Shown one piece after another: positions 35,020-62,477 of a DNA stretch of 64,000 nt (positions are counted from its first letter, which is position 1; every line of letters begins with the position of its first letter). The DNA is taken from positions 84,045 through 148,044 of the forward strand of contig JAGVEX010000019.1 of assembly GCA_020057885.1 (NCBI GenBank), written 5' to 3'. The translations under genes and the position numbers were made by a program. The DNA comes from a bacterium (GTDB taxonomy: Bacteria > Patescibacteriota > Patescibacteriia > Veblenbacterales > UBA10138). The notes below the pieces were generated by a model. It did not search any database, was not told where the DNA came from, and worked only from the letters and a program-made list of their open reading frames with translations.

Positions 35020-36369
35020 TCACCTTATCCACTCCACTGCCTCGTATATAGTTTTTACAGAGGCTATTTCCAGCCCTTTGGGTAATTTAGCATTGGCTGG
35101 CAACCCGGCTGTTAGGGCCTGTTTAAAACCCAAACGAGCGGCCTCCTGCAGACGCTTTTCTGCGCCCACCACCGGCCTTATCTCGCCACCCAAGCCTACC
35201 TCTCCAAAAACCACCAAATCATTCGGTAGCGGCCTTTTTAGGGCAGCTGAAGCCACCGCCGCGCATACTGCCAAATCCAAAGCCGGCTCACGGCTTTTAA
35301 ACCCACCTGCTAAATTAATATAAACATCACTAAAATTTAATTTCACTCCCGCGCGTTCAGCTAAAACCGCCAACAAAACCTGCAAACGATTAACATCAAA
35401 ACCAGTGGTAGCTCTTTTTGGATAATTTAATCTGGAGTGAGTTACCAATGCTTGTAACTCAATTAGCAAACTACGCGAACCTTCTAGCACCGCCGTAATA
35501 CAGGAACCAGCCCCCAAATGACGTTCAGCTAAAAATATAGCAGAAGGATTTGTTATCTCACGTAACCCCGCCTCGCCCATTTCAAACACACCAACTTCGT
35601 CGGTCGGACCAAAACGATTTTTATTAGCGCGTAAAAAACGTAAAGCTTGGTGTTCAACTCCATCTAAACTCAAAACCACATCAACTAAATGTTCAATTGT
35701 TTTGGGTCCAGCGGCTACGCCTTCTTTGGTAACGTGGCCAATTACAACCACTGCTATACCAGTTTCTTTGGCGAGTGCCACCAATTCTGACAAAATCATT
35801 TTAACTTGTGTGGGAGAGCCAGGATTACCCACCCCTTCGGACGCGCGTATGGCTTGCAAAGAATCAATTACTAATAAAACTGGGTTTAATTGCCGCGCTG
35901 TGGCTATCACTGTATTAATATCAACTTCATTGGTAAAAGAAATATTTTTACCTTTAAGTCCCAAACGTTTTAATCTGTTTGCTACTTGCTCCACAGATTC
36001 TTCGCCCGAAACATAAAGCACTGAGCCTGAACAACGCTCAGCCAAGCCAAGCAGTAAAGTGGATTTACCCACACCTGGCTCGCCGGTTAACAAAACAACC
36101 ACAGCCGAAGCGAGTCCTCCGCCTAACACTCTGTCTATCTCCACCCAGCCCGTAGCCAAACGGCGCGCTGGCGTTTCACTAATATGATCGCTAAGTGAAA
36201 CTGTGGCACCAGCGAGGTTCAACGCTGTGTGTTGAGTCTGACGGGTAACTGCGGTTGGCTCCGTGCCTACAGTGCCAAATTTACCACATTGGTTACAACG
36301 CCCTACCCATTTAGGGTATTGCGCGTCACAATTTGAGCAAATATAAATAATAGATGATTTAGGAGACAT
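35020..36369 (-). CDS. radA: DNA repair protein RadA/Sms
   Basis: N-terminal C4 zinc finger, Walker A 'GEPGVGKSTLLL', the 'KNRFG' motif, and a Lon-like C-terminus. Confidence 0.9.
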   Translation of the reverse strand: MSPKSSIIYICSNCDAQYPKWVGRCNQCGKFGTVGTEPTAVTRQTQHTALNLAGATVSLSDHISETPARRLATGWVEIDRVLGGGLASAVVVLLTGEPGVGKSTLLLGLAERCSGSVLYVSGEESVEQVANRLKRLGLKGKNISFTNEVDINTVIATARQLNPVLLVIDSLQAIRASEGVGNPGSPTQVKMILSELVALAKETGIAVVVIGHVTKEGVAAGPKTIEHLVDVVLSLDGVEHQALRFLRANKNRFGPTDEVGVFEMGEAGLREITNPSAIFLAERHLGAGSCITAVLEGSRSLLIELQALVTHSRLNYPKRATTGFDVNRLQVLLAVLAERAGVKLNFSDVYINLAGGFKSREPALDLAVCAAVASAALKRPLPNDLVVFGEVGLGGEIRPVVGAEKRLQEAARLGFKQALTAGLPANAKLPKGLEIASVKTIYEAVEWIR

Positions 36370-37505
36370 TATTTAATACAAAATTTAGATAATGGACTAG
36401 AGCCAGGATATTCAAAATGCCATTTTTCACGTTTACTAACAATGGGATTGCCTATTAACTGACAAAAACCAGCTTGCTTCATAATACCAGTTAACACATC
36501 TTGGCAAGGATCACTGGAGCTCTTGCCTTTGCACACCACGTCAACTGCCTGACCTGTAGTATGAGGACAATTAGCTTTATCTGGTTTAGGCTTACAAGTG
36601 TCCACTAAACATTTTCCATTTTTACAATTCTCTTCGTAAAGTTTTAATTGTTCGGCGTAAGTGCGTGAAGCATAATTAATTTCAATTTTTAAACCTTGAT
36701 TTTGGGCAGCTCGCGCAACTGTCAATAAAGTCTGCAATACATCTTCACGTAAAAAAGGATACTTGGCCGCGTCGGCATCTAAATAAAGAGTGGGGTTATC
36801 TTCTGGAATGCGCACTAAAGCAGGATAACCAGGAGGATTTTCCACCTCTTCTTCCACTAAATCAAGGGTTTGGCGTGGAATAGTAGTAATATCTAAAGTT
36901 TTAAAACTAACCAAAGCAGGGTTGATAAGATTTAAAAGTGTATAAGAAATTAAAGCTAACACTAAACCAGATATAGCGCTTATAATAGCGTCGTTAGCAT
37001 CTTTAACCCGCTCTGGCGAGCCAGCGGCCATAATACGTTTAAATCCGCCCCACGTTACCATTACGACTGAGGTTACGGCCAACATGGCAATAAAAAATTT
37101 ATAAAAAAGACTTAAGTAATTAACAAAAGTATCTCCCGTTACAACTATCCCCTGACCTGCTTTAACTTCAAAATTTTTACCAGCAATAGAAATACTGCCT
37201 GGAATGGTAATTTGTGGTGTAAATTCAATTGGCCCACTTTTTTCTTCACTCACACCAACGCCGCCACCAGTTGAAGGCGCCGAATCGTCGCGTACACAAC
37301 TATATGTTTCCCAGGTATCAACGCCACTGGCACGACTAGCATTACGGTGTTCACATTTAAAACCAGCACAACATATAATCTCTTGGCAATTGCCTTCGGC
37401 TGTAGTGCCTCCGGCCACGCAAGCTAATATCGCTTGAGGTGTGATTAACCAAAATAAACCAACCACTGCAACTATAATAAAATGCCACTTTTTTTTCTGA
37501 ACCAT
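36369..37505 (-). CDS. Cys-rich secreted protein with a central VirB2/TrbC-pilin-like double-transmembrane core (paralogue A)
   Basis: A signal peptide, Cys-rich segments, and the core 'FYKFFIAMLAVTSVVMVTWGGFKRIMAAGSPERVKDANDAIISAISGLVLALISYTLLNLINP'. That core is roughly 90% identical to the core of ORF 41374..42732. Confidence 0.5.
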   Translation of the reverse strand: MVQKKKWHFIIVAVVGLFWLITPQAILACVAGGTTAEGNCQEIICCAGFKCEHRNASRASGVDTWETYSCVRDDSAPSTGGGVGVSEEKSGPIEFTPQITIPGSISIAGKNFEVKAGQGIVVTGDTFVNYLSLFYKFFIAMLAVTSVVMVTWGGFKRIMAAGSPERVKDANDAIISAISGLVLALISYTLLNLINPALVSFKTLDITTIPRQTLDLVEEEVENPPGYPALVRIPEDNPTLYLDADAAKYPFLREDVLQTLLTVARAAQNQGLKIEINYASRTYAEQLKLYEENCKNGKCLVDTCKPKPDKANCPHTTGQAVDVVCKGKSSSDPCQDVLTGIMKQAGFCQLIGNPIVSKREKWHFEYPGSSPLSKFCIK

Positions 37506-38168: not shown

Positions 38169-38257
38169 AAAATAAATATAAGAATTACGAATTATGAATC
38201 ACGAATCAAGAATAAAATTAAATTCATCATTCGGTATTCATGATTCAAAATGTTTTA
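38169..38257. repeat. Intercistronic heptad-repeat hairpin ('gaattac gaattat gaatcac gaatcaa ... tcatcat tcggtat tcatgat tcaaaat')
   Basis: 7-nt periodic 'GAATnnn' arm, then the complementary 'TTCnnnn' arm. It fills the whole spacer between two minus-strand genes. Confidence 0.5.
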
Positions 38258-39523
38258 CTATTGTAATTTTACGCTTCTAAGCTTGCCACTGGTATCGGTA
38301 AAATAAAGTATTTTTCCATCCTGAGAAATTGTTAAATTAGTAGCCGTGAGAGCAGTGCCTGTTTCGTCTATTGGCTCAGCCACCAAAGTGGTAGAACCAG
38401 TTTGCAAATTAACACGATAAATATAATCGGGAATATTATTGGCCATCTCACGTGTAAAACCAGCGCCTTCAGGCAACTCCTTGGGCACCGCGCAATAAGC
38501 CACCTCACCAGATAAATTACATTTATCCGACCAAGTAGCCAAACCTAAAGACTGTTTGTTGGAACCCACACTATCTGTAGCGGCATCTACCAGCCATAAT
38601 TCTGGTTTATAATTTGTTGTATCACTATAAACAGAATAAAGTAGTTTTTTACCATCGGGTGTCCAATTCGACTCAAAGCCCCGGCCATCAACTGTTAATT
38701 GCGGAAAATTTTCCCCATTTAAACCTATCAAAAGAACATTTTGTTGAAACAAGCCAGCTGGCTCACCAGTGCGCGACAAGGCCACTACTTGATTATTAGG
38801 AGACCATTCAACATCAACTTTATCAGCATTTTCGCCCATTGCTTCTATACCGGTAAGCCCCGAACCGTCTGGATTTACTGTAGTAATCCAATTATTAGAT
38901 AAACTATCCCCTAAATACTTACCGGCGATTTTTTGTCCATCACTCGAAAAAGAAAATTCAGTCATCTCTTTGGGCAAAGTATATTGTTTTTTACTCTGGA
39001 AATCATATAACACATTCGCGCCATCGGGAAATTCTAAAATAGCGCTATTGCTACTGGGTGCCCAAGTAACGGTTTGAACCTGGGGATATAAGGCGTCGGT
39101 TAAAAGACTTTTTGCACCGTCTGGAGAAATTTCATAAAATTTACCATCAGCCGCGTTATAATAGCGAACACTATCTCCGGTAGCACTGGCAGGAAACATT
39201 GTTGAGCCGCTAGTTAAAGCTGTAGCGGCTGTGGCACCACCAACAGCCACTGGCGAACCAGGTTGATTTGTTAAACCAGCATTAACATTAACGTTTACAT
39301 TTACATTAGAAATCGGCAAATTAACTCCGCCTGGACCACTTACATTAACATTGCCGTTTGTGGTAGGAGGAAAACCGGTTGGGCCATTTACGTTAACATT
39401 ATTATTGGGCAATGCTTGTTCTGATTTAGTAAATAAAATAAACAATAACCAAGCTAAAACACCAATAGCTATTACAACACCAACTGTTAATAAAATTTTA
39501 CGACGATCAATATTCTCAAACAT
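38258..39523 (-). CDS. TolB-like beta-propeller (PD40-repeat) protein with an N-terminal transmembrane anchor and an (NVN)n low-complexity linker
   Basis: Transmembrane helix, 'NVNVNGPTGF...NVNVNVNVNAG', then repeated 'DG.K..Y' propeller-blade motifs. Confidence 0.45.
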   Translation of the reverse strand: MFENIDRRKILLTVGVVIAIGVLAWLLFILFTKSEQALPNNNVNVNGPTGFPPTTNGNVNVSGPGGVNLPISNVNVNVNVNAGLTNQPGSPVAVGGATAATALTSGSTMFPASATGDSVRYYNAADGKFYEISPDGAKSLLTDALYPQVQTVTWAPSSNSAILEFPDGANVLYDFQSKKQYTLPKEMTEFSFSSDGQKIAGKYLGDSLSNNWITTVNPDGSGLTGIEAMGENADKVDVEWSPNNQVVALSRTGEPAGLFQQNVLLIGLNGENFPQLTVDGRGFESNWTPDGKKLLYSVYSDTTNYKPELWLVDAATDSVGSNKQSLGLATWSDKCNLSGEVAYCAVPKELPEGAGFTREMANNIPDYIYRVNLQTGSTTLVAEPIDETGTALTATNLTISQDGKILYFTDTSGKLRSVKLQ

Positions 39524-39531
39524 ATACTAAT

Positions 39532-40149
39532 TTATTTAAGATAGCTTCTCATTTGTTTCAGCAACTCAGTTTTTACTTCGGACCAATTGATGCGTTCCAA
39601 AAGAATGGGGTTAGGTTCACGTTCGGCTTCAACGAAATAAACCAAACTTTTAAGCAAATGGAGATGATTATATTTTACACCTTTATACTTTTTATCAAAC
39701 CAATCTAATAACTGTTTCAAAGAATAAACGCGCAATAACACATACAAATCAAAAAAATCTTTGCGACTGCCTCGGCTAGAAATGGCTTGCAGTTTCATAC
39801 AGCCAATATCGGCTGGTGCGGCCAAATTTACTCCCTGATAAGATACTAACCGACGCAATAATTTATAAGGATAAAAAAGAAAACTTAATCTTATTCCAGC
39901 CAATCTAATATGCAAAGTACCAATGTCTTCTGAGACAACTGTTATTTTACCAATTTTAGATAGTTGCCTTTTAAGTAAGTTCGAAGAAAATTTATGCGCT
40001 GAAAACCAATCAAAATCCAGCGATTGCCTGTGGCCACACTGCAAAGCCAGGGCTGTTCCACCAGCCATATACCAATCTCCATTTTTTAAAATTCCTCCTA
40101 ACTTAGGCAGTAATCTTTTGGCAGTTGGTAGCAAAATTTCTTCATGCAT
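39532..40149 (-). CDS. AbiEii-family nucleotidyltransferase (type IV toxin-antitoxin toxin-like)
   Basis: 'MAGGTALALQCGHRQSLDFDWF' matches the AbiEii / DUF1814 N-terminal nucleotidyltransferase motif. 205 aa. Confidence 0.65.
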   Translation of the reverse strand: MHEEILLPTAKRLLPKLGGILKNGDWYMAGGTALALQCGHRQSLDFDWFSAHKFSSNLLKRQLSKIGKITVVSEDIGTLHIRLAGIRLSFLFYPYKLLRRLVSYQGVNLAAPADIGCMKLQAISSRGSRKDFFDLYVLLRVYSLKQLLDWFDKKYKGVKYNHLHLLKSLVYFVEAEREPNPILLERINWSEVKTELLKQMRSYLK

Positions 40150-40159
40150 ATTACTAACC

Positions 40160-40453
40160 TCATTTTTTAATAACTACCTTCCATAACGCCTTACTTTTAG
40201 CATCAAGCTCACGAGTTTTAACAATAACGTTATACAACAAACTTGGGGAATATATTTTTTTTATAACCTTCCAATCCCCAATATCGCCAAATTGCAAAAC
40301 ACGTTTAATAATAAAAGCGCTATGCTTTTTAGGTTTTAACGTTTTGGTTGCTATATCCCAAAAAAGACCTTGTGAAAATTTACTACTAAATAAGCTCATA
40401 TATAAATTATAGCATATTTTAATTGTTTTTACAACCTTTGCGGCTTTTACCAC
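40160..40453 (-). CDS. Small protein upstream of the AbiEii-like gene. It may be the cognate antitoxin.
   Basis: 97 aa, 10 nt upstream of the toxin-like gene on the same strand. No family recognised. Confidence 0.3.
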   Translation of the reverse strand: MVKAAKVVKTIKICYNLYMSLFSSKFSQGLFWDIATKTLKPKKHSAFIIKRVLQFGDIGDWKVIKKIYSPSLLYNVIVKTRELDAKSKALWKVVIKK

Positions 40454-40511
40454 TACTTACAATACACGCGCAAAAATCCAAAACCTAAATCACTTTAAAT
40501 TATCAACATTA

Positions 40512-40537
40512 CACATTGTGACGGCCGTCAAAAAGTG
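40512..40537. repeat. GC-core palindrome P2 ('cacattgtgacggccgtcaaaaagtg'), the left border of PaaX-like cassette 1
   Basis: Perfect 12-bp core 'tgacggccgtca'. The arms match apart from two mismatches. It sits within a left flank that is about 85% identical to 63515-63593. Confidence 0.55.
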
Positions 40538-40559
40538 TTATATTGATTAAAGGAATATA

Positions 40560-41108
40560 TTGTTAACAATATTAATGATAATTAATTTTATGGAACAACT
40601 AAGTCTAACAAAACAAATCCTTCTTACCTTACTCGATGGGGCTTCTGAATTAAGAGGCATGCATAAAAATATGAGACTTATATCTCCTTTTCGCGGCATA
40701 ACCAAAACGCCAAATTATTATGTATCGCTTGGACGACTCAAACGGCGTGGTTACATAAAACAAATAAATAATAACTATTATTTAACTTTACAGGGCAAAC
40801 AATTAGCGCAACATTTACTTGTCAGACAAGCTCTTAAGATAAAAAGCCAACGTTGGGACGGGCAATGGCGTATGGTGTGTTTTGATATTCCAGAAAAATT
40901 AAGACGCGAACGAGCGGCTTTACGCAATTTTCTTTATCGTTCCGGATTTCGAAAATTACAAGAAAGTGTCTGGCTAACACCATATGACGTAATAAAAGAA
41001 GCTGTTGACACATGGAAAGAACTTGGGCTGGCGCCTTATGTTCGCACAGCGCTTATAAAATCGCTTGATAACGAAATTGAATTTAAAAAACTATTTAAAC
41101 TCACCTAA
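40560..41108 (+). CDS. PaaX-like protein with an N-terminal winged-helix and a C-terminal Cas2-like motif (cassette 1)
   Basis: The N-terminal half looks like a wHTH. The C-terminal half has 'WRMVCFDIPEKLRRERAALRNFLYRSGFRKLQESVWLTPYD', a Cas2/PaaX_C-like beta-alpha-beta core. It is a paralogue of ORF 53388..53939. Confidence 0.55.
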   Translation: MLTILMIINFMEQLSLTKQILLTLLDGASELRGMHKNMRLISPFRGITKTPNYYVSLGRLKRRGYIKQINNNYYLTLQGKQLAQHLLVRQALKIKSQRWDGQWRMVCFDIPEKLRRERAALRNFLYRSGFRKLQESVWLTPYDVIKEAVDTWKELGLAPYVRTALIKSLDNEIEFKKLFKLT

Positions 41109-41204
41109 ATCACGACGGTCGTTATTAAATTTTAAGTAAATTAAAACAACTTACTTAATATTAAGTAAGTTGTTAATAAATTTATAACTTTTTTATCTAT
41201 CTAA

Positions 41205-41230
41205 CACTTTTGGTCGGTCGACCAAAAGTG
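41205..41230. repeat. GC-core palindrome P3 ('cacttttg-gtcg-gtcg-accaaaagtg'), the right border of cassette 1
   Basis: 9-bp arms 'cacttttgg' / 'ccaaaagtg'. The centre is the palindrome 'ggtcgacc' carrying a 4-bp 'gtcg' tandem duplication. Confidence 0.55.
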
Positions 41231-41289
41231 TAAGGTTTAAAAAATAAGGGTTAATAATAGTTTAAATTAAATAAATTGTTTAGACTAAA

Positions 41290-41372
41290 ATGTTCAAGCT
41301 AAAATTCCAATAGCTATTACAACACTAATTGTTAATAAAATTTTACGACGATCAATATTCTCAAACATAAAT
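41290..41372 (-). pseudogene. Duplicated 5'-fragment of the TolB-like gene (24-codon remnant)
   Basis: About 90% identical to 39450-39523. It encodes 'MFENIDRRKILLTISVVIAIGILA' then a stop. Confidence 0.45.
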
Positions 41373-43941: not shown

Positions 43942-43960
43942 AAAATAATTAATAAAAGTT

Positions 43961-53939: not shown

Positions 53940-53978
53940 GGTCAATAAAATATCTACAACATACCTAAAATTATCAAT

Positions 53979-54170: not shown

Positions 54171-57100
54171 TTATGGCTTAACTTTAATTATGCCATTAAA
54201 TTTAAGCCAACCACTGGCGGAAAGATTACTGCTGTTGCTGATACAGTCAGGAGTGCCCCACTTAGCACCGGTGGAACCCAAGCACCAATCCCAATTATCT
54301 TTTACCAAAACTGCTGGAGTAAATTCACAAGCGCCCTGATTAGCTCCTAAAGAATTTGGATTATAACTCAAACTTGAACTACTGCAAGTATAAACTTTAG
54401 TAAAACCAAAGTAACCAAGGCTGCCACTAGCTGTATCTTGCACACAAGCTTGTGAGGAATCACCAAAGTTATAGCGCGGATTAGCTACATCACCTTCTTT
54501 GCAAGCATTCAGTATACTACTGCACTGCGTGTCATTCGCGCAAAGTTTACCTAGATCGGCTAAGTTAGTGCACATTTTAGCTTTAACTGTTGCTGGTTCA
54601 CACATGTGCTTATGGTTCTTATATTTACCACTAGCGCCAGCTAAAACTGAACCATCACCCCAATTAACCCAAACATCGGTTAAGGGCATTTGCTCGCCAT
54701 TGGGATTATAAGCGTAGAATAAAGTGCTAATAGGAGCAGGCGAAGCCAGCACCACCTCGCCGTTATTAAAACTGCCGCCTGGAGTTTGCAAAGTAAAACC
54801 AGTATTACCCTCAATAGTGGATGTGCCGTTTAATTCAAACACTACTTGTTTAATTGAAGGGGCTAAGGGCACATTATAATAACATGGCGGATTGGTAGAG
54901 GGAGAACATAAAGAACCGGGCAGTCCGCTACTTGAATCAATATCTGGGAGCGCAGGGGAGGTAAAACGGGAAGTTGAAGTATTCCATGTTAAAACATCAA
55001 AAATTTTAGCAAATAATTGCTGCACTCTTACTATACCACTTGTACCCCAACCCAACCCTTGATAACCAGTGCAAGTGTCTCCACTATTGCAATCGTTATC
55101 AACCTGACACAGTTGAGTAGTTCTTACACCGCTTACACCGCCGACTTCGCAAACTTTGTTAAAATACCCCATACAAACAGGGGCGGACGAATCACCGCAA
55201 TCAGCCGACTTATTACATTGTTTCCCTATGGTCAATATACCGTTACTTTGGCCAGAAAGACAAATTCCATACCCTGTGCCACAACCATTTTCGCAGAAAA
55301 AGGATTGTGGGAAAGTTGAAAAATCACCACTGCTACTTGTAATATTAACACCGGGCTTATCGCTCATTATTAACATACTAGTGCCAGAGTCTACTGCTTG
55401 GCTAAGCTTGCCATAAGGACTGGGGTTACGGCTTTGGGTAAAGCCCAGCTCTGTTTTTGGCGCTACTTGATAAACAGTATTTCTGAGCACACGATCAGTC
55501 CAAACTTTATTGCTAGCGCTACTTGCCACTTGAACAGCTTCAGTGCAATATTCTCTTAAATAAGTTTCTCTACCATTTATCACAAAACTACCTGTACCAG
55601 GACTACCGTCAGAATATATCACATTATAACCTAAAAATTTATCATTACTATCAAACACAGCTTTAATAACAGCGTAATCAAAATTTGTGAGAGAATGTAT
55701 ATTCATAGCGACATCAAGATTATGTTGTGTACCATCTATCAAAGTATTAGGCGGTAGAATATTATTAGACGTTAATTTAGCACAACGGTCAGCAAGCTCA
55801 GTAAAATTAAAATCACATTGTTGGTTCATATCACATTTTACACCAGCACACCAATCATTACCTTTATTTAAATAGAATCTCCCATACTCCTCCTGTGAAT
55901 TAGTTGTAAGGGTGAAATTAGGGTTAATACCCCAGCCGCCAAAAAGTTGAAACGGCAGATAAATTGTTTCTATATCAGCTTTATAAAAATTTTCTTCACC
56001 AACCTCGGCTACACGTGAAAAAATAACTATATCCTCACCAGCGGCTTCTATTCTTTTATCTTTGTTATTACAAAAATAATTGGAACCGAGCTCGGAATTT
56101 TGTAGTGTAAAATCATTTGTGCAATATCTTACATCTTGAAACTCATAACAGCGCCAGTCGGCAGTATAATCAATATAAGCTACATTACAATTAGCGAGAG
56201 CTCCATTCGCGGCGTGATACGTATAATTCTCCCCCCGTGAGCCAACTTTGTTACCAATAGATTCACTGCAATAAAAAATCTCGCCGCCAGTATAGCCAGC
56301 CTCCGGAGCATAATTATAAACAGAAATTTCACCAGCCGCTGTATCGAGCGGCAGCCAAGTAAGACAGGCTTTGGCAGTACCGCTGTTAATAGAACGAGAG
56401 GTATCCTGCTCCAAACAATAACCTTTCATACCAATAAAACTGTTGTCAGTTTTAATTTTTGATTTAACCTCAACCGGTTGGTTAGTATTTGCATCAATAT
56501 CATTCTGAGTATAGAACATGGACTGCAGTTTGGTGGTATCAAAACCGTAATACAGTGTTTGCCCGCCGCTATAAATGGCCTTGCTGTAAGAGCACTCACA
56601 ATCTTCTCCGTTTTGGCAATTGTTCGCGTCTTTATAATCAGCGTCTTTATTTTTAGCTACGGCAATATAATTAGCAGTGCCCACAGGCAAACAGTTGCTA
56701 CCCTCGCAAGCTGGGGTCCAGTTTTTTACTACAACTGTGGGGAAAGGTGAATCCTTTTCTGGATAAGCACGACAAGCTTTAATAACAGTATTATTGTCAC
56801 TTAACAATTTTTTATCATCAAGTGGGCCTAAGCCAGTGGCACCCTTATCCTCATATTGACAAGTAGTAACAGTGTTACAAGGAGAAGCGCTACTGCCAAT
56901 TGGTAAATTACACTCATCGCCCGTGCCGCCACACCTTTTAACTTTATTATTTATATAAGTCAAACGGATATTGGTGGTAAGTGGATCAGTAGAATAATTT
57001 TTTTGCGTTAAAAGCTCAATAGAATATTTATCAGGAATAGAATAACCAGAATAATCCATACCGCTCCAATCGGTTGCGCGCGCTTGATAATTAGTTAAAG

Positions 57101-60100
57101 TTAAAGGCTGAGGGTCTTCGGGGGGGGTAAGCCAGTGACTGCATTTACTGACACCGCTACCACTGGTACCCCAAGCGTCACACTTACCTAAAGCATAACA
57201 AATTGAACTAGCCTTACTGCTGACAAAACGCGTGCTTTCGCTTTGGCAGGCCAACCATTCACCACACACACGATCACGACTAACTTTTAGAATAATATTC
57301 GCGTTGTTAGGCGGAGCGCTAATCGGCGCTATTAATTTATCGTTTTGTCCGGTGCTGGAAGCATAAGTGGCGGCGGCATTGCTAGTAAGCTGAGATGAGG
57401 ACAAATCAGTAAACAATAAGCAGCCCTCTTTTTTACTAACACCAGTACATTTTTTATCAAGCTTGCTATTATCCAAATAATAATAAGTTTGCTTGGTAAG
57501 TTCTGGGTCGTGGAAAGCTTTACAGCTTACTTGGTCAGCAGGACACAGATAAGCCAGTGGCACCTGCGACTCGCTCAACGAAAATTGATCTACATAAATA
57601 ACTTGATTGGTGCTGCAAGTTTCGGGTGTACAAATCATATTACCACTGCCCACAGGCTGTTCCACGCCGCCATTGGTAATAAGGCCTACGGAAAGCTGAG
57701 TAACGCCTGGATCAATTTTAATAAGCGCTTGTTTGTAAACCCATTTACCTTTTTCAGTACTAGTTATGATGTTATCGTAACCGGGTTCATAATCATAATG
57801 CGGCACAGCTTGTTGCGTTAATTGCCAACTGGTAAAATTACGATTTTGTGGTATGTCGGGAACATAAATATGAGCTGAAACTGTAAAATAACGCGGCGTA
57901 CTACTTGATTCAATTTTTACATCATTGCTCCAAATTCCAGCGTAAATTTTAGCGCCACTTTCTATTTCCAGCACATTTGAGCCCCAATATTGTCCAGCGA
58001 CTGATTCGTGAGCTGTGAAAATAGCTGACTCGGTTTCTTCACCACTAGGGCCATTAATATTCCAACCCGAAAAAGCGTCTGACAAATTAACAGTTACATT
58101 GTCATAGTAAGCCGTACCAGCAACGGCTGAACCGCCAGCTGAAGTATTTAATTGTAGGAGGCAAGTGCGCGTGGTTGGTTTAAAGCTTAGTTGCAATTTT
58201 TCCCACACACCCGCTTCTTCGGTGTAATCGGAAACATTAACTCCGCAACCTGAAATATTAAGCGTGCGCCTAATGCCTGTATCGGCTTTTACCCAAACGC
58301 GAGCAGTATAAGCTTGGCCAATTATTACATCAAAATTTTGTCGGACCGCATCATCACCGCCAGCAAACTCATCCTTAATGCTTTGTACTCCATTGTGGCT
58401 ATCGCGTATTAAATCTGATGAGAGGGATAAATTCCAATCAGTAGGAGATATGCTATACCAGTTAGCTGGCCAGACGGTAATATTTTCAAAATCACCATCA
58501 GCTATTAAATTATCGCCGACATCATTAACTTTTTCAAAACTTGGATTATCTAACAAATCACAAAGTTCGGTAGTGCCTTTTTTATACCAATCATAACCAC
58601 GCAAACTATCTAATTGTTTGTACTCGCACACTCCATTGCCCGGATCCTTAAAAAAATGGGTAACGGAATTGCTGTCGGTAAACTGTTCGCACTTATCTTG
58701 CGCGCGACTGCACAAAAGCGAGCCAGCTCCTGTGTCACCCAAAGTATCCGGATTTAACTTAACAAATTTATCACTCCAATCTTGCACGTTGCCCGAAGAA
58801 TCAAGTTTGGGCTCACCTACGCGCTGACAAGCCTTGGCCGAAGCAGCGCAGGATTTTTTGGCATCATAAACTCTGTATATTACTTGATCAGCTGGAATAT
58901 TTAAAGCCGGCGGATCGGGCAAAGTAACAACAGTAGATTTAGGTGAAGAAGAATTTTGCGTATTAACCAAAGCTTCACAGCCCACGGCTTCAACTTTGCA
59001 AATTTTACTAAAATCAGTAAGAGTAGTTTTTGTGCCTGCGCGATTGGTATAAGCCGCACAACGTAAGTCACTAGCTGTACAAGTAGAAGGCGTAACCCAA
59101 GTATCTTTGCGGACAAAGAAAGTATCACCTATTTCACGCAAGGATACATTATCAATATAAAATGACGCGGGACTGGATATTGTTAAGGCTAAACTAGCTG
59201 GAACATCGGCCGTAAGCTGAACTGGCCCTAAAGTATAAACTTGCCACTCGCCACTTATTGGCAAGCTCCCTAAGCTAGCAAGGGGGTTGGTATTTATACT
59301 GGCGCTAATAGTGCTAGTGGCCGCCGTACTCTTGATCCAAAAATTAAGGAAATAAAGTTTACTCTTGGCAACCTTGCCACTAATATCTTTAGTAATGGTG
59401 CTGTTGCCAGCGCCTGAATACAAGGAATGACCAAAAGCGGAAGTTGATTCATTGGAATTACTGCCAGGAGTAAAGCCGCCGGTGGGAGTAGTGTCGGTGC
59501 TGAAACCAGCTTCGTTGTCACCAAAAGTAGTTATAGGAAACACTAAGCGTATATTATCGGCAGTAGGACCACGGTATTCTCGGCAACCAACATATTGAGC
59601 GCTACAAATTACACCCTCTTGTGGAATGGCATTATAAAAACAAGCAGGTGGAACAGCGGAGGCATCCCAAGTACCACCACTAGCCTCACAATCATTTTGA
59701 TTTATAGAAGTGGCGCGATAATTAGCGCAAGAGGCGGAAGCTGTAATTGTCTTAGACCAATAACGATAGTGAATTCCACCTGTTGTATCATAAAATTGTT
59801 TGCAATCTGGGTTCGAAGGAAAATCTGTTGGGGGAGTAATACCATTACCACATTCCGATCCTATGTTAGAATTATCTGTAGTAGTAGGCGCCGAATTGGG
59901 CATAGTAGGATCCTCCGCTTTTAACTGCCAAGTTTTAAGCTGATAACCAGATAAATTAGACCCTACCCAAGTGTAGTAAATATGATCTTCACCGGTATCT
60001 AATTTGATACACTGCCTAAGTTCGGCATAATACTCTTTGGCCTCATTCTGAACATTGGTAAATTCCTCACAACCAACCGCTTGAGCAACACAAGATTTAG

Positions 60101-62477
60101 CAGTGGTAGGAATAAAATTCATATCATCATTTGTAGGTAAACATTCAAGCCCGCCGCAGGTAGCTGAAGTTTGACAAATACTGCCGTTATTTATACCACC
60201 ACAACGCAAATTCTGGTTAAAGAAACTGGAATTTTGCTGATAATTGTTATAACCAATACATTCATTGGGGCAAGTGTTGCCTTTAATGGCTGGAATATTG
60301 GGTGAACCGTCGGCTGGCGTATAAAGTTCACAACCAACATCATCAACCCTACAAGAATTTAAATAATTTTTGCAAAGCGCTGAATCGTTAGTAATGTCCG
60401 CGTCATAACAATTTAAGAAACTAGGTGCCTCGCGCAAAGTAACAGCTTGTACTTTGGCATATTGTTCATATGAATCAGTGCTAGTGGCAGGTGTAACTCG
60501 AGCCACTACATCATTAGCCAAACATGCCACATCACTTGTACCGCAGGTAGTACCAACCAAGGTCGACATATTAAAATTACTCAAGCGCAAAAATTGCGTG
60601 CATCCTTCAGCGCTGGATTCGCAGGCGTATGTGCTAAAATCTTTCAAATAAATTTTATCGTCAGCATTATAACGGTTAACTGGTATACTGGCCGCAGAAT
60701 TATAAGATTTGGAATACCAACGGCAACCAATTGAATCACTGGTACAAATACTATTTTCTCCTACCAATGAATTTTGTAGATAAAAATTCGTATTGCCGCT
60801 ACGACTGGTAAATGCCTGACAAGTAGCATAAGGGGAATAACCTGAGCCCGCTGGAAATTCACAACTATCGCCACTGAAACGCCAAACATTTTTTTCTTTG
60901 GTACAATAACCCCAGGCCTGACAATTACCATTATCATCTTCAGCTACACAATTTTGCGTATCAACGCAAATTTCTTGCCTAGTGCCACCTTCAGATTGCA
61001 ACTGTTGGCCACTGGCCTGAATGCGACATTGTGACTGAGGAGCTTTTAATACCCAATTAGGATCAATTAGATGATAAAAAGGGCTACCTAAAACATTAAA
61101 TCCATCCATTACTTGTCGCAAAGTATAACTGGTGCCGGCAAATTGTTTAGCGGCCATTTCCCAGCCAATTGGAATGATTCGCGCCCGGCGTAATTTTTTT
61201 AAATCTGATTCATACCATTTACTAGGCTGACTTTCTTGCTCAGGATGATCTTTAGCAAACACCCAACTGCCGTTAATAAGTTTTTTATTTTGTACGGCGT
61301 CGGCCACAGTAAGCGGCTGACCCGACTCAGCTGAACGCAAAGCCTGCTCAAAACCATTATCAATAGTACAGTTATTAAGCTCAGCAAATTTTCGTGGGCT
61401 AGGACAATTTGAAAACTCGCTGATAACATCAATTTTATCCACACTCTTAAGAGTGGGAGTGGAAATTGAACTATTTATTTGCATGGCGTAATCCACGCCA
61501 CTAATACTGGTATTGTTTGCGATTGGTGAAAATGTGCCGCTGGGATTTTTAACATCTCCCTCTAAAAGCCGTTTCATTAAACGAGAAGCTAGGGTATTGG
61601 TAAAAACACCTAAGGCGTCGGCCACAACATCCCCGGTATAAGTATTAAAATCTTTTAGGGCCTCACCAACAGGCGTATCAACTAATAATTTTTCAACTTT
61701 AGCAGCAGGAGTTTTTATAAAACCGGTAATTGGTTCAGTAACAGCCCTTATGCCCCCATTCATGGTGTCGAGTGCTTTTTGAACGGCTTTTTGATCCTCG
61801 GCTCGTGTTAATAAATCTTGACGCAAACTCAAACTTACGCCCAATTCATTTTGCCGTGGATCTATAGCATAACCAAAAGCCTGTTGCGCCATGCGGGGAT
61901 TTTTTAAATACTGATCCCAAGCCGCGCCAATTTGTTTTAAATTACAACGTGGTCTAGTAGGTCGTATTTCTTCAAATAAAGCCGTGGTAATAATAAGGTT
62001 AGCAGTAAAACCTGGTGGCCTACATACATCCAAACTTAAATAACCGTTCTCGGTAGCTATGGTATCTATAAAGTCACCAGCCGCATCATTCCAAGCGTCA
62101 GTAGCTGATTTACCTAAATTTTTCCAAGTAAATAAAGGTGTTTGTCCTTTGCCACCAGAACCTATCATTACCGCGGCATCATAAGCAATGCGATTGGCAA
62201 ACATTTTAGCTGCATTTTTAAAAGCCACGGCCGCGCCATGTTCCCATACCCATTCTAAAGATTTTGTAAGCCAACCTTTAGCCGCCTCTGCCTGTTGTGC
62301 GACAATTTGTAGCTGGATTGCTGCTAAAACCCCTGGATCAGTTACTGCCCACTGTGCTTGAGCGGATTTAGGAGTAAAAAAAGAAACACCAACTGTAGTA
62401 AAAATAACACTCAAAAATATTCCAGTAGTTAAAACGCGGAATAAGCGTGGGTGTTTATTTTTTAACCAAGAAGACAT
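54171..62477 (-). CDS. Giant (2768 aa) cysteine-rich secreted or surface protein with an N-terminal signal anchor
   Basis: One uninterrupted ORF. The N-terminus has a hydrophobic signal ('LTTGIFLSVIFTTVGVSFF'). Several hundred Cys, Gly, Ser, Thr and Asn residues suggest disulfide-rich beta-structure. A heptad array lies just upstream. Confidence 0.7.
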   Translation of the reverse strand: MSSWLKNKHPRLFRVLTTGIFLSVIFTTVGVSFFTPKSAQAQWAVTDPGVLAAIQLQIVAQQAEAAKGWLTKSLEWVWEHGAAVAFKNAAKMFANRIAYDAAVMIGSGGKGQTPLFTWKNLGKSATDAWNDAAGDFIDTIATENGYLSLDVCRPPGFTANLIITTALFEEIRPTRPRCNLKQIGAAWDQYLKNPRMAQQAFGYAIDPRQNELGVSLSLRQDLLTRAEDQKAVQKALDTMNGGIRAVTEPITGFIKTPAAKVEKLLVDTPVGEALKDFNTYTGDVVADALGVFTNTLASRLMKRLLEGDVKNPSGTFSPIANNTSISGVDYAMQINSSISTPTLKSVDKIDVISEFSNCPSPRKFAELNNCTIDNGFEQALRSAESGQPLTVADAVQNKKLINGSWVFAKDHPEQESQPSKWYESDLKKLRRARIIPIGWEMAAKQFAGTSYTLRQVMDGFNVLGSPFYHLIDPNWVLKAPQSQCRIQASGQQLQSEGGTRQEICVDTQNCVAEDDNGNCQAWGYCTKEKNVWRFSGDSCEFPAGSGYSPYATCQAFTSRSGNTNFYLQNSLVGENSICTSDSIGCRWYSKSYNSAASIPVNRYNADDKIYLKDFSTYACESSAEGCTQFLRLSNFNMSTLVGTTCGTSDVACLANDVVARVTPATSTDSYEQYAKVQAVTLREAPSFLNCYDADITNDSALCKNYLNSCRVDDVGCELYTPADGSPNIPAIKGNTCPNECIGYNNYQQNSSFFNQNLRCGGINNGSICQTSATCGGLECLPTNDDMNFIPTTAKSCVAQAVGCEEFTNVQNEAKEYYAELRQCIKLDTGEDHIYYTWVGSNLSGYQLKTWQLKAEDPTMPNSAPTTTDNSNIGSECGNGITPPTDFPSNPDCKQFYDTTGGIHYRYWSKTITASASCANYRATSINQNDCEASGGTWDASAVPPACFYNAIPQEGVICSAQYVGCREYRGPTADNIRLVFPITTFGDNEAGFSTDTTPTGGFTPGSNSNESTSAFGHSLYSGAGNSTITKDISGKVAKSKLYFLNFWIKSTAATSTISASINTNPLASLGSLPISGEWQVYTLGPVQLTADVPASLALTISSPASFYIDNVSLREIGDTFFVRKDTWVTPSTCTASDLRCAAYTNRAGTKTTLTDFSKICKVEAVGCEALVNTQNSSSPKSTVVTLPDPPALNIPADQVIYRVYDAKKSCAASAKACQRVGEPKLDSSGNVQDWSDKFVKLNPDTLGDTGAGSLLCSRAQDKCEQFTDSNSVTHFFKDPGNGVCEYKQLDSLRGYDWYKKGTTELCDLLDNPSFEKVNDVGDNLIADGDFENITVWPANWYSISPTDWNLSLSSDLIRDSHNGVQSIKDEFAGGDDAVRQNFDVIIGQAYTARVWVKADTGIRRTLNISGCGVNVSDYTEEAGVWEKLQLSFKPTTRTCLLQLNTSAGGSAVAGTAYYDNVTVNLSDAFSGWNINGPSGEETESAIFTAHESVAGQYWGSNVLEIESGAKIYAGIWSNDVKIESSSTPRYFTVSAHIYVPDIPQNRNFTSWQLTQQAVPHYDYEPGYDNIITSTEKGKWVYKQALIKIDPGVTQLSVGLITNGGVEQPVGSGNMICTPETCSTNQVIYVDQFSLSESQVPLAYLCPADQVSCKAFHDPELTKQTYYYLDNSKLDKKCTGVSKKEGCLLFTDLSSSQLTSNAAATYASSTGQNDKLIAPISAPPNNANIILKVSRDRVCGEWLACQSESTRFVSSKASSICYALGKCDAWGTSGSGVSKCSHWLTPPEDPQPLTLTNYQARATDWSGMDYSGYSIPDKYSIELLTQKNYSTDPLTTNIRLTYINNKVKRCGGTGDECNLPIGSSASPCNTVTTCQYEDKGATGLGPLDDKKLLSDNNTVIKACRAYPEKDSPFPTVVVKNWTPACEGSNCLPVGTANYIAVAKNKDADYKDANNCQNGEDCECSYSKAIYSGGQTLYYGFDTTKLQSMFYTQNDIDANTNQPVEVKSKIKTDNSFIGMKGYCLEQDTSRSINSGTAKACLTWLPLDTAAGEISVYNYAPEAGYTGGEIFYCSESIGNKVGSRGENYTYHAANGALANCNVAYIDYTADWRCYEFQDVRYCTNDFTLQNSELGSNYFCNNKDKRIEAAGEDIVIFSRVAEVGEENFYKADIETIYLPFQLFGGWGINPNFTLTTNSQEEYGRFYLNKGNDWCAGVKCDMNQQCDFNFTELADRCAKLTSNNILPPNTLIDGTQHNLDVAMNIHSLTNFDYAVIKAVFDSNDKFLGYNVIYSDGSPGTGSFVINGRETYLREYCTEAVQVASSASNKVWTDRVLRNTVYQVAPKTELGFTQSRNPSPYGKLSQAVDSGTSMLIMSDKPGVNITSSSGDFSTFPQSFFCENGCGTGYGICLSGQSNGILTIGKQCNKSADCGDSSAPVCMGYFNKVCEVGGVSGVRTTQLCQVDNDCNSGDTCTGYQGLGWGTSGIVRVQQLFAKIFDVLTWNTSTSRFTSPALPDIDSSSGLPGSLCSPSTNPPCYYNVPLAPSIKQVVFELNGTSTIEGNTGFTLQTPGGSFNNGEVVLASPAPISTLFYAYNPNGEQMPLTDVWVNWGDGSVLAGASGKYKNHKHMCEPATVKAKMCTNLADLGKLCANDTQCSSILNACKEGDVANPRYNFGDSSQACVQDTASGSLGYFGFTKVYTCSSSSLSYNPNSLGANQGACEFTPAVLVKDNWDWCLGSTGAKWGTPDCISNSSNLSASGWLKFNGIIKVKP

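Follow-up and report, generated by a model that had tools for sequence, protein, structure and literature searches.

Type IV Secretion Systems of Patescibacteria

The closest described relatives of the locus analysed here are the chromosomal type IV secretion systems (T4SSs) of Patescibacteria. In the accessible part of the survey by Quinonero-Coronel et al. 2025 (PMC12102498), these systems comprise a TrsD and VirB4 pair, PrgI, VirB6, and pilin arrays, and a relaxase is absent. The same part of the survey restricts VirB8 to the class ABY1, and links the ABY1 T4SS to comF, recG, and radA. It also reports relaxases in only 103 of 3035 genomes, and VirD4 homologues in most Patescibacteria genomes, usually distant from virB4. 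The genetically tested prototype is found in Southlakia epibionticum (SEML1_0006-0019), as set out in the accessible part of Wang et al. 2023 (PMC10633639). These two sources, within the same bounds, and PMC12857230 all regard systems of this class as non-conjugative.

Few machines have been shown to be essential in an epibiotic CPR bacterium, and the Patescibacteria T4SS is one of them; loci of this kind bear on the ways in which a quarter of bacterial diversity feeds on its hosts. The locus described here is of this already published kind: a relaxase-less chromosomal T4SS typical of ultrasmall Patescibacteria, located beside radA and recG. Its use is as a parts list in which core genes are told apart from strain-specific inserts, and in which three conserved, unannotated components stand out: a giant Cys-rich protein, a family represented by a 740-aa protein, and a pilin–VanY fusion.

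Identity and Chromosomal Setting of the Locus

The window, that is, the whole stretch of 64,000 nucleotides that was analysed, holds in all likelihood a chromosomal, non-conjugative T4SS of an ABY1-class member of the Patescibacteria (CPR). This identification is supported by a VirB4 that scores above the CD1110 family cutoff, by the detection of TrsD, PrgI, and pilin domains, and by conserved synteny. All ORFs listed in the first-pass annotation were recovered in place by an ORF check, and profile searches against Pfam and NCBIfam confirmed VirB4, the TrsD-like protein, PrgI, the pilins, DsbA, and PD40. The genes that border the locus are:

31635-33686, plus strand: recG (Pfam)
34459-34986, minus strand: mpg (Pfam)
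35020-36369, minus strand: radA (Pfam)
62632-63381, minus strand: membrane-anchored protein with a TSP3 (calcium-binding) repeat, 249 aa (Pfam TSP3_bac, 2.7e-9)

As had been noted from the sequence, radA and then mpg follow downstream on the same strand. The start codon of radA overlaps the stop codon of the last T4SS gene, which encodes the pilin–VanY protein (TAATG). Operon-level coupling to radA is seen at this locus, and coupling to comF is seen in sister lineages. At the other end, the closest genome also has a 249-aa orthologue immediately before the giant gene, and this 249-aa gene is possibly the first of the locus. KsgA follows beyond the 249-aa gene in both the window and the closest genome.

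The VirB4 protein is 75–88% identical to hundreds of proteins of the same length from ABY1 (for example Veblen-, Kerfeld-, and Buchananbacteria). Among the 120 database proteins closest to it (75–100% identity), every named one is from Patescibacteria. The whole gene order recurs in dozens of ABY1 genomes, the giant Cys-rich protein, the 740-aa protein, and radA/recG included, and the order of the locus genes is identical in the closest genome. Synteny counts were taken over 47 related loci with full flanks, and gave 47 for TrsD, 47 for PrgI, 46 for the 740-aa protein, 40 each for the VirB6-like and VirB8-like proteins, 33 for the pilins, 32 for PD40, and 23 for DsbA. recG adjoins the locus in 36 of these and radA in 29; both adjoin it here. 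On these sequence comparisons, the source bacterium is close to Candidatus Veblenbacteria, and the T4SS is chromosomal and vertically inherited.

By gene content, the system is very probably a member of the monoderm (MPF-FATA-derived) T4SSs that have been published as the ‘Patescibacteria clade’. It shares with the systems described in the accessible part of PMC12102498 a chromosomal location, a VirB4 with a separate TrsD-like gene, PrgI/VirB3, a probable VirB6, a probable VirB8-like protein (detectable mainly in ABY1), multiple VirB2-like pilin-domain genes, the lack of a nearby relaxase or coupling protein (T4CP), and the ABY1-specific neighbourhood of recG and radA. No difference in kind separates it from the systems in the accessible parts of that source and PMC10633639. 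Four features go unmentioned in those parts: pilin hairpins set inside proteins of 378–452 aa, one of them fused to VanY; a giant Cys-rich protein conserved beside VirB6; a 740-aa protein family that recurs between VirB6 and PrgI; and a lineage without the comF that many ABY1 loci have after the VirB8-like gene. The gene complement had at first been thought unusual. Judged by the related loci, it is the ABY1 norm in its TrsD and VirB4 pair, its pilin-domain proteins, its giant neighbour, and its radA linkage, making this a well-conserved ABY1 example and no new kind of system.

A different origin would be an integrative and conjugative element (ICE), or its decayed remnant, with the genes for relaxase, coupling protein, and integrase either lost or situated beyond the window. 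ICEs are where the VirB4 family CD1110 and the pilin-like Mbov_0395 family were originally defined, the locus contains mobile-looking inserts (a toxin–antitoxin module, PaaX/Cas2-like genes, and palindromic repeats), and there are fragments of a DDE transposase (IS-type ‘rve’) at about 17.5–19.7 kb (18071-19671), 17 kb away from the cluster. Against this, many ABY1 genera have the locus in one constant position, with ksgA on one side and radA/recG on the other, and VirB4 is conserved at the level given above. Housekeeping genes flank it on either side, and its GC content is similar to that of its surroundings. The mobile-looking genes are small secondary insertions that are missing from relatives.

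Searches for the missing conjugation genes point the same way. A Pfam scan of the window's ORFs (90 aa or longer) gave no family match to a T4CP, VirB11, or a relaxase. In the closest genome, the 10 kb upstream of the orthologous locus showed none of the three either, and the giant-gene end of the locus is instead followed there by the 249-aa orthologue and KsgA, with a ComM-like gene 9 kb upstream. A T4CP was also absent from the recurrent neighbour families in 80 loci, where clustering of the unexplained neighbour ORFs gave ComF, PPDK, MetK, ABC, and ClpX-like families. The first-pass annotation saw no VirD4, VirB11, relaxase, or integrase in the window; the first three absences stood, and for the fourth, the only integrase-like or boundary-like features in the window are the distant rve fragments, with no site-specific recombinase there or, in the closest genome, over the 10 kb upstream. 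The rarity of relaxases in the accessible part of PMC12102498 adds to this. Because of the housekeeping flanks and the lack of a T4CP, relaxase, or VirB11 in the window and recurrent neighbour families, the locus is, by sequence context, not an ICE and has no mobile-element features of its own. The ICE reading is largely refuted already and is very improbable. The earlier suggestion of a non-conjugative T4SS-like apparatus in an episymbiotic bacterium with a reduced genome agrees with these flanks, with the ABY1 synteny, and with the literature. A T4CP elsewhere in the source genome is possible, since coverage extended to the window and to 10 kb upstream in the closest genome.

The Membrane Translocon

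The genes for the predicted membrane complex and its closest neighbours are:

42803-43285, minus strand: protein with two hydrophobic (transmembrane) segments, 160 aa
43378-43941, minus strand: bitopic, probably PrgL/VirB8-like protein, 187 aa (transmembrane segment, profile comparison)
44189-46054, minus strand: VirB4 ATPase of CD1110 / MPF-FATA type, 621 aa (NCBIfam and Pfam)
46108-46797, minus strand: TrsD-like protein, a separately encoded VirB4 N-terminal domain, 229 aa (NCBIfam)
46963-47418, minus strand: PrgI / VirB3-like small membrane protein (Pfam)
47830-50052, minus strand: soluble protein without a transmembrane segment, 740 aa
50053-53061, minus strand: extended VirB6-like polytopic membrane protein, 1002 aa (hydrophobic segments, orthologue Pfam matches)

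The VirB4 ATPase matches NCBIfam conju_CD1110 at 350.9 bits (cutoff 325) over profile positions 179–730 of 752. It also matches VirB4_plasma at 278 bits, Pfam P-loop_TraG at 1e-28, and CagE_TrbE_VirB. Both its Walker A (ATSGAGKS, residue 271) and Walker B (VLVIDE, residue 477) motifs are intact. The proposal that a VirB4-like ATPase is encoded as two ORFs was borne out: the TrsD-like protein matches VirB4_plasma positions 96–240 (2e-12), TrsD (1.7e-7), and CD1110 positions 19–136. A frameshift or an alternative genetic code was considered as the cause of the split and ruled out, as the two ORFs lie in different frames with a 53-nt spacer between them, and two genes are present in all 47 relatives, where the TrsD-like gene is always separate and encodes about 225–245 aa. 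By this comparison, the split VirB4 is ancestral. PrgI likewise agrees with its first assignment, with a Pfam match of 5.8e-9 (36.8 bits, cutoff 27) and two to three hydrophobic segments, and is kept in all related loci.

The 1002-aa protein had been called VirB6/TrbL-like with a charged tail. It is indeed polytopic, with at least six hydrophobic segments within residues 19–334, and its charged C-terminal tail is 657 aa long (36% K/R/D/E). The copy in the window has no family match in Pfam or NCBIfam, and a profile of 45 orthologues found no match among PDB sequences. The family link is transitive: 11 of the 45 orthologues match Pfam TrbL/VirB6 (best 5e-6), which indirectly supports VirB6 homology. 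The 187-aa protein, previously put forward as possibly VirB8-like, has the expected single N-terminal transmembrane segment. The best PDB match of its soluble-domain profile is PrgL (7aed), spanning the whole domain at a weak E-value of 0.024, and hhalign gives a probability of 86.5%. The protein is thus probably PrgL/VirB8-like, on marginal support, and its gene directly follows VirB4 in 40 of the 47 loci. The 160-aa protein is fast-evolving, with sequence conservation only in the nearest relatives, and in 29 more distant ABY1 loci its position, directly after the VirB8-like gene, is taken by a ComF-like gene.

Together, VirB4, the TrsD-like N-domain, and PrgI/VirB3 would form a membrane translocon, with the indirectly supported VirB6 and PrgL/VirB8-like proteins as further members. 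VirB4/TrsD would supply the energy for assembling the pilin-domain proteins into a pilus-like structure or a channel.

The 740-aa protein, described at first as hydrophilic, is encoded between VirB6 and PrgI in nearly all related loci. It consists of a helical N-domain, a Pro-rich disordered linker, and a conserved C-terminal domain of about 110 aa. It has no P-loop, and no Pfam or PDB match was found even with a 58-sequence profile. Its AlphaFold2 (AF2) model is shallow (mean pLDDT 52.8), because a word-based homologue search gave only four proteins. The N-domain (residues 1–205) is modelled at pLDDT 80–90, and a Foldseek search with it returned no fold match, only generic helical-repeat similarities (E>0.1). 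A search with the C-terminal domain recovered 2261 cluster representatives in which the domain is always C-terminal. By this distribution, the domain defines a large unannotated family.

Pilin-Domain Proteins and Extracellular Components

Much of the locus is predicted to encode secreted or membrane-anchored proteins:

36369-37505, minus strand: pilin–VanY protein with a signal peptide, Cys-rich domain, VirB2-like hairpin, and C-terminal VanY domain, 378 aa
37509-38168, minus strand: membrane-anchored DsbA-like thiol-disulfide oxidoreductase (Pfam)
38258-39523, minus strand: membrane-anchored PD40 (TolB-like) beta-propeller protein, 421 aa (Pfam PD40, 3.8e-8)
41374-42732, minus strand: secreted protein that is Cys-rich (30 Cys) and has an internal VirB2-like pilin hairpin, 452 aa (Pfam)
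54171-62477, minus strand: secreted giant Cys-rich protein, 2768 aa (signal peptide, 104 Cys)

Two Cys-rich secreted paralogues had been recognised as VirB2-like, and both match T4SS_pilin (PF18895) above its cutoff of 26.6 bits, at 28.1 bits for the 452-aa protein and 27.8 bits for the 378-aa protein. Matches of both to the NCBIfam Mbov_0395 pilin-like model are sub-threshold (1.7e-6 for the 452-aa protein). Their hairpins are 81% identical at the DNA level, and both proteins are atypically long; the 452-aa protein carries a signal peptide and two transmembrane segments. What had been missed is the C-terminal VanY domain of the 378-aa protein, a LAS-type peptidoglycan peptidase (Pfam, 28.9 bits, above cutoff) with the Zn-site motifs HTTGQAVD and EKWH present. 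The pilin–VanY fusion occurs in 10 of 48 loci, and pilin genes lie near virB4 in 33 of the 47. The VanY domain would open peptidoglycan.

The DsbA-like oxidoreductase and the TolB-like propeller were both identified as originally proposed. The former matches Thioredoxin_4 (3.9e-29) and DSBA (1.5e-17) and has a CPYC motif at residue 82; the latter has PD40 repeats and an N-terminal transmembrane segment. Both would be anchored on the outer face of the membrane, where DsbA would oxidise the many extracellular cysteines.

The giant protein has more than 120 homologues of 2500–3700 aa. All are from Patescibacteria, all are annotated as ‘hypothetical’, and many carry CBM_4_9, to which the copy in the window has a weak Pfam match. 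Residues 1–1300 and 1700–2100 are conserved, and residues 1300–1700 and 2100–2768 are variable. In at least 30 of 53 loci, the gene next upstream of the VirB6-like one is a large Cys-rich ORF. The protein is a candidate surface or host-contact component, and would mediate contact with the host. A VirB5/TrbJ-like head was suspected from a motif after the signal peptide and a weak DUF4141 match; the N-terminal 600 aa gave no recognisable fold.

The abundance of extracellular Cys-rich proteins that dominates the locus, together with DsbA, the propeller, and a giant with CBM-like and variable modules, could also be read as an adhesion or surface-assembly apparatus, in which VirB4 powers the display of pilin-adhesins and the giant protein, and no macromolecule passes through a channel. 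In CPR bacteria, a role in attachment is assumed for large Cys-rich surface proteins (PMC4736985, PMC8080830). However, the translocon set of VirB3, VirB4, and the VirB6-like and VirB8-like proteins is strictly conserved and would be superfluous for adhesins exported by Sec, and type IV pili already provide Patescibacteria with adhesion (PMC11665869). Adhesion alone is accordingly judged a rather improbable role.

Comparison with Other Type IV Secretion Systems

Beyond the Patescibacteria, the nearest comparators are conjugative MPF-FATA systems of Gram-positive type: pCF10 Prg, pIP501 Tra / pGO1 Trs, CTn2 (CD1110), and the Mycoplasma ICE (Mbov_0395/0397). The CD1110 score above cutoff, the VirB4_plasma match of 278 bits, TrsD, PrgI, a probable PrgL-like VirB8, a probable polytopic VirB6, a cell-wall hydrolase, and the lack of outer-membrane core components are all shared with them. 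In contrast to these systems, the locus has no relaxase, T4CP, or oriT-linked module, and is not on a mobile element. It also has pilin-domain proteins, unlike most Gram-positive systems, and its hydrolase is a VanY-type peptidase, whereas theirs is a VirB1/CHAP enzyme.

Helicobacter pylori ComB and archaeal Ced resemble the locus in having a T4SS core that lacks both coupling protein and relaxase, and in their association with recombination or competence genes. Orthology is limited to the shared VirB4/HerA-type ATPase. The VirB4 ATPase domain is weakly similar to CedB (48 bits; cutoff 700), with a weak match to CedD too; beyond these, no import-specific subunits (ComB2-10, VirB7/9/10-like proteins, or CedA/CedB orthologues) were found at the locus. 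ComB, unlike the locus, is part of a diderm system that has VirB7/9/10. Two others, Bordetella Ptl and Brucella VirB, are also alike in working without a VirD4-type coupling protein. They are, however, diderm MPF-T systems with VirB7-11, whose outer-membrane parts are absent here, and their substrates cross the inner membrane via Sec.

Direction of Transport

As to what the apparatus moves, contact-dependent import of host or environmental nucleic acid is tentatively favoured over effector export. Import is favoured because the start of radA overlaps the stop of the last T4SS gene, because 29 ABY1 loci carry a ComF-like gene immediately behind the VirB8-like one, and because of the ComM-like gene in the closest genome. 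Imported DNA would be handled by the co-transcribed RadA, by the neighbouring RecG, and, in other ABY1 lineages, by ComF. Uptake by the Patescibacteria T4SS has been speculated on before (PMC11665869, PMC12857230), and a 2026 preprint describes tubular structures, possibly T4SS pili, and uptake of host RNA in a cultivated member.

The linkage to radA and recG could be mere conserved synteny, which would count against import. In Southlakia epibionticum, the T4SS is essential and ComEC-dependent DNA uptake is dispensable (PMC11665869, PMC12857230), so the role of the T4SS there is not classical transformation. Two further observations count against import: comF was not found in this window, and exporters without a T4CP exist, namely Bordetella Ptl and Brucella VirB.

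Export would mean that proteins such as toxins, lytic enzymes, or host-manipulating factors are delivered into or onto a bacterial host with no coupling protein in cis. Most characterised non-conjugative T4SSs export proteins, and Ptl and Brucella VirB do function without a T4CP (PMC12857230, and the accessible part of PMC12102498). For the Saccharibacteria system, Wang et al., in the accessible part of PMC10633639, proposed that it ‘may instead export proteins’. Among the products of the locus itself are many secreted Cys-rich proteins, along with a cell-wall peptidase for which the host is a conceivable target. Yet these Cys-rich proteins all have Sec-type signal peptides, and consequently would not need the T4SS channel to leave the cell. 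Moreover, the locus encodes no effector-like cytoplasmic proteins with recognisable toxin domains, and its conserved operon partners, radA and recG (joined by comF in other lineages), are genes for DNA processing. Effector export is thus considered somewhat unlikely.

If the favoured import reading is extended to every component, the ABY1 T4SS might be a dedicated nucleic-acid importer that works without a VirD4-type coupling protein. The pilin-domain proteins, one bearing its own peptidoglycan peptidase, would form the conduit into the host, and the giant protein, with its conserved stalk regions and variable modules, would set host specificity. The 740-aa protein would act as a cytoplasmic substrate receptor, or as a factor that hands the substrate to RadA, RecG, and ComF. 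This extended scheme is speculative and, taken as a whole, unlikely. The family that the 740-aa protein would found is unannotated and counts more than 2000 cluster representatives.

Strain-Specific Insertions

Several genes interrupt the conserved order:

39525-41369, both strands: inserted 1.85-kb cassette (AbiEii, DUF6922, PaaX_M/Cas2-like)
39532-40149, minus strand: AbiEii (Pfam)
40160-40453, minus strand: DUF6922 (Pfam)
40560-41108, plus strand: PaaX_M/Cas2-like cassette gene (Pfam)
47459-47803, minus strand: 23S rRNA-IVP family four-helix-bundle protein, 114 aa (Pfam 23S_rRNA_IVP, 1.4e-29)
53388-53939 (unit 53286-54013), plus strand: inserted PaaX_M/Cas2-like gene (Pfam PaaX_M, 6.5e-15)

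The gene run was initially described as lying entirely on the minus strand, which does not hold for the two PaaX_M/Cas2-like genes. An AbiEii module and a four-helix-bundle protein had been counted among its components. Both exist; judged by their distribution, they and the two PaaX/Cas2-like genes are strain-specific insertions outside the machine. AbiEii occurs in none of the 47 related loci. The 23S_rRNA_IVP gene occurs in only three and is absent from the closest genome. A bAvd-like match of the IVP protein raised the idea of a diversity-generating retroelement (DGR), which was rejected, as the window contains no reverse transcriptase and the gene is a sporadic insert.

Two of the insertions are bracketed by repeats. 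The PaaX_M/Cas2-like gene at 53388-53939, with homologues in only two of the 47 loci, lies between two identical 40-nt perfect palindromes (53286-53325 and 53974-54013). A 75-nt direct repeat (95% identical) flanks the 1.85-kb cassette: 39450-39524, the 5′ end of the PD40 gene, has a second copy at 41295-41369. The closest genome lacks the cassette, and its pilin and PD40 genes are directly adjacent.

A conserved translocon of a published kind

The T4SS (type IV secretion) gene run is an instance of an already known kind of system, since a survey of 3035 Patescibacteria genomes (Quinonero-Coronel et al. 2025, PMC12102498) describes the same parts. The survey reports that Patescibacteria VirB4 proteins form a monophyletic clade nested in MPF-FATA, with adjoining TrsD homologues (1664 cases), PrgI/VirB3 and VirB6, and with VirB2-like pilins nearby, often in arrays. 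It describes very few relaxases, and T4CP genes that usually lie far from virB4. What is added here is small, namely the separation of core from inserted genes, a pilin–VanY fusion, a giant protein conserved as the neighbour of VirB6, and a large unannotated family represented by the 740-aa protein. Such additions are useful as leads, though none would surprise a specialist.

All open reading frames that the first-pass annotation had placed in the run are present, and profile searches upheld most of its assignments, among them a VirB4-like ATPase carried by two reading frames and a PrgI/VirB3-like protein:

44189–46054, minus strand: VirB4 ATPase, 621 aa (Pfam P-loop_TraG, 1e-28, and CagE_TrbE_VirB; NCBIfam conju_CD1110)
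46108–46797, minus strand: TrsD-like protein, 229 aa, just upstream of VirB4 (NCBIfam)
46963–47418, minus strand: PrgI/VirB3, 151 aa (Pfam PrgI, 36.8 bits; cutoff 27)

VirB4 scores 350.9 bits against conju_CD1110 (curated cutoff 325 bits), covers profile positions 179–730 of 752, and has intact Walker A and Walker B motifs. The 229-aa protein matches the TrsD family and VirB4 models, the latter only in the N-terminal part. Hundreds of database proteins of equal length (about 620–630 aa) are 75–88% identical to VirB4, the named ones belonging to Candidatus Veblenbacteria, Kerfeldbacteria, Buchananbacteria, and other Patescibacteria.

When one genome was scanned for each species, 80 loci emerged, which were searched with every window protein by tblastn. 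They occur in the same groups and in Falkow-, Komeili-, Magasanik-, and Uhrbacteria, all of which we take to be the GTDB class ABY1. Gene counts were restricted to the 47 loci whose 10-kb flanks were complete. Across these, order and orientation are the same for the core genes (TrsD-like 47, PrgI 47, 740-aa 46, VirB6-like 40, 187-aa 40), the outer-face genes (pilin-domain 33, PD40 32, DsbA 23), and the DNA-repair neighbours (recG 36, radA 29). The closest genome (GCA_964453605.1, 876-kb contig) carries, in order, genes for a TSP3 protein, the giant, VirB6-like, a 620-aa protein, PrgI, TraC-like, VirB4, a 186-aa protein, pilin, PD40, DsbA, pilin, radA, mpg, and recG; upstream of the TSP3 protein are ksgA, an MFS transporter, Sua5, LeuRS, a LysM-M23 peptidase, and a ComM-like ATPase. 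From this conservation of genes, order, and orientation it follows that the locus is passed on vertically and keeps one place on the chromosome. The ‘split’ VirB4 is likewise an ancestral two-gene arrangement, as a separate TrsD-like gene occurs in the same order across related loci and the closest genome.

Many TPA metagenome-assembled genomes with the locus (related loci L005–L007, L011, L014, L016, and others) have records with the title ‘uncultured Gammaproteobacteria bacterium’. The title must evidently be a placeholder or a mislabel, because their VirB4 is 80–88% identical, and their synteny identical, to Patescibacteria MAGs.

VirB6-like, VirB8-like, and large proteins

The 1002-aa protein (50053–53061, minus strand), described earlier as VirB6/TrbL-like with a charged tail of about 600 aa, shows six or more hydrophobic segments within residues 1–340, followed by a tail of 657 aa in which 36% of residues are charged; these features would place it with the ‘extended VirB6’ proteins as PMC12857230 uses the term. 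Pfam TrbL/VirB6 is matched by 11 of 45 orthologues (best E 5e-6), although the window copy itself matches no model; a profile search of PDB sequences with the family found nothing. The suggested VirB8-like protein (187 aa; 43378–43941, minus strand) is indeed bitopic, and PrgL of pCF10 (7aed) is the top PDB match for its soluble-domain profile, with the whole domain covered, but at an E of only 0.024 (hhalign probability 86.5%). This match fits the near-restriction of Patescibacteria VirB8/PrgL homologues to ABY1 reported in the survey (PMC12102498).

Profile searches of Pfam and NCBIfam gave no significant family match for the 740-aa, 1002-aa, or 2768-aa proteins themselves. The 740-aa protein (47830–50052, minus strand) has a confidently modelled helical N-terminal domain, a long proline-rich disordered linker, and a conserved C-terminal domain; neither a fold match nor a sequence match was found for it. 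Its C-terminal 121 aa (47833–48195), for which Pfam has no model, recovered, when searched alone, 2261 representatives of clusters at 50% identity (1630 of them with E<=1e-10), and the domain always forms the very C-terminal end of these proteins, which are 350–1070 aa long. Only one bore a source name (‘hypothetical protein’, Patescibacteria group bacterium). The domain defines a large unannotated family tied to Patescibacteria T4SS loci.

The giant 2768-aa protein (54171–62477, minus strand) has more than 120 homologues of 2500–3700 aa in the same bacteria. Residues 1–1300 and 1700–2100 are conserved, while 1300–1700 and 2100–2768 are variable, and no recognisable fold was found in the N-terminal 600 residues. 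In at least 30 of 53 loci, the VirB6-like gene comes directly after a large Cys-rich ORF; surface proteins of this large, Cys-rich kind are an established trait of CPR bacteria (PMC4736985, PMC8080830).

Proteins of the outer face

Two secreted paralogues had been called VirB2/TrbC-like, and both the 378-aa (36369–37505, minus strand) and 452-aa (41374–42732, minus strand) proteins carry T4SS_pilin (PF18895) just above the Pfam cutoff, with sub-threshold matches to a Mycoplasma ICE pilin-like family. That description missed a C-terminal VanY (LAS-type) peptidase domain on the 378-aa protein, which is above the Pfam cutoff and has the metal-site motifs HTTGQAVD and EKWH; the fusion occurs in 10 of 48 loci. 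The DsbA-like oxidoreductase (CPYC motif) and TolB-like propeller (PD40 repeats) were confirmed by profile searches. The three secreted proteins contain 14, 30, and 104 cysteines.

The pilin hairpins of the paralogues (36902–37106 and 42018–42222) share 81% DNA identity across 205 nt, but the Cys-rich domains on either side show no relationship, a pattern that suggests gene conversion or domain shuffling about a conserved hairpin.

Mechanism and direction of transport

The locus combines a conserved monoderm-type inner-membrane translocon with pilin-domain proteins and a giant secreted protein, and its outer-face proteins include an oxidoreductase, a propeller, and a peptidase. VirB4/TrsD would power the assembly of a channel or a pilus from the pilin hairpins, DsbA would oxidise the many extracellular cysteines, VanY would remodel peptidoglycan in place of VirB1, and the giant protein would provide host contact via its variable modules.

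The conjugative DNA-processing module is absent in cis. As first noted for VirD4, VirB11, and relaxase, profile searches detected no coupling protein, VirB11, or relaxase in the window. An ICE origin is very unlikely, and the earlier reading of a non-conjugative T4SS-like apparatus coincides with the published interpretation. The Saccharibacteria T4SS, which is essential for epibiotic growth, is also without recognisable coupling or relaxase proteins (Wang et al. 2023, PMC10633639).

Reviews call the role of that system unknown and speculate on effector delivery or uptake (PMC11665869, PMC12857230), and a 2026 preprint on a cultivated member describes host RNA uptake and tubular structures, possibly T4SS pili. 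Nucleic-acid import is the direction we tentatively favour, at somewhat less than even chances. In its favour, the final T4SS gene and radA overlap, stop codon on start codon (TAATG), and this linkage is conserved, recG is nearby, a ComM-like gene is nearby in a relative, and a ComF-like gene follows the VirB8-like gene in 29 other ABY1 loci:

About 12400–13100 in related loci L022–L084 (e.g., L049, 12400–13095): ComF-like gene (phosphoribosyltransferase and double zinc ribbon, ~231 aa), the very next gene after the VirB8-like one and within the T4SS operon

For ABY1 loci specifically, the survey reports co-located comF, recG, and radA (PMC12102498). Against import, comF is missing from the window, where, as in the nearest relatives, a small 2-TM protein takes its place; some exporters are known that work without a T4CP; most Patescibacteria genomes encode VirD4 homologues at other places; and S. 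epibionticum depends on its T4SS but not on ComEC. Effector export is a plausible but rather doubtful alternative, and a purely adhesive role is improbable.

Insertions, repeats, and flanking genes

The run had been described as lying wholly on the minus strand, which does not hold, as two genes inside it are on the plus strand (profile searches):

40560–41108, plus strand: PaaX_M/Cas2-like gene
53388–53939, plus strand: PaaX_M/Cas2-like gene

The AbiEii-type module and four-helix-bundle protein of the first-pass annotation do exist, as profile searches matched an AbiEii and DUF6922 pair and a 23S-rRNA-IVP protein (114 aa; 47459–47803, minus strand). Since AbiEii (0), DUF6922 (1), PaaX-like (2), and IVP (3) genes are near absent from the 47 related loci, the toxin module, IVP protein, and PaaX-like genes are secondary insertions. 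A 75-nt direct repeat, 95% identical (39450–39524 and 41295–41369), brackets a 1.85-kb AbiEii/DUF6922/PaaX-Cas2-like cassette that relatives do not have. The repeat consists of the first 25 PD40 codons, a second copy of which follows closely on the stop codon of the 452-aa pilin gene; it resembles the footprint of an insertion that duplicated its target.

The second PaaX/Cas2-like gene is bracketed by two identical 40-nt perfect palindromes, TCAATATGCCAAAAAGTGTCCGGCCGGACACTTTTTGGCA, at 53286–53325 and 53974–54013; related hairpins are beside the first (40502–40547 and 41191–41244). An 88-nt repeat (40457–40544 and 63513–63600, 86% identical) bears another hairpin (63561–63600). Such hairpins may represent elements of REP/MITE-like type, or else bidirectional terminators, travelling with PaaX-like genes.

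An intergenic element of ~150 nt occurs twice in the operon, at 43942–44188 (before the 187-aa gene) and 46798–46962 (before the TrsD-like gene), the copies sharing 81 nt at 85% and 61 nt at 84% identity. Within it is a sigma-70-like site, TTCCCA-N18-CATAAT, and its end, shortly before the start codon, is made up of heptamer repeats of the TTAGGAT type. Runs of similar heptamers are also found ahead of virB4 (46058–46096) and the giant gene (62476–62536), and a second type, GAATCAC/GAATCAT, occurs at 38182–38249, 43295–43377, and 44159–44186. These sequences may act as promoters inside the operon or as a regulatory site that its genes share.

After the cluster, radA and then mpg follow on the same strand, as first reported, with recG just beyond. 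The remainder of the window holds housekeeping genes (uvrA, uvrC, uvrD, RNase J, aminoacyl-tRNA synthetase, SHMT, FolD, H+-PPase, ksgA). DDE-transposase fragments are found at 17.5–19.7 kb, far from the cluster: three adjacent plus-strand ORFs with HTH and rve domains (17542–19671), amid housekeeping genes, look like pieces of one or two insertion sequences. A 192-aa ORF (29196–29774, minus strand) matches the Translin family (PF01997, 3e-18), a family described chiefly in eukaryotes and archaea.
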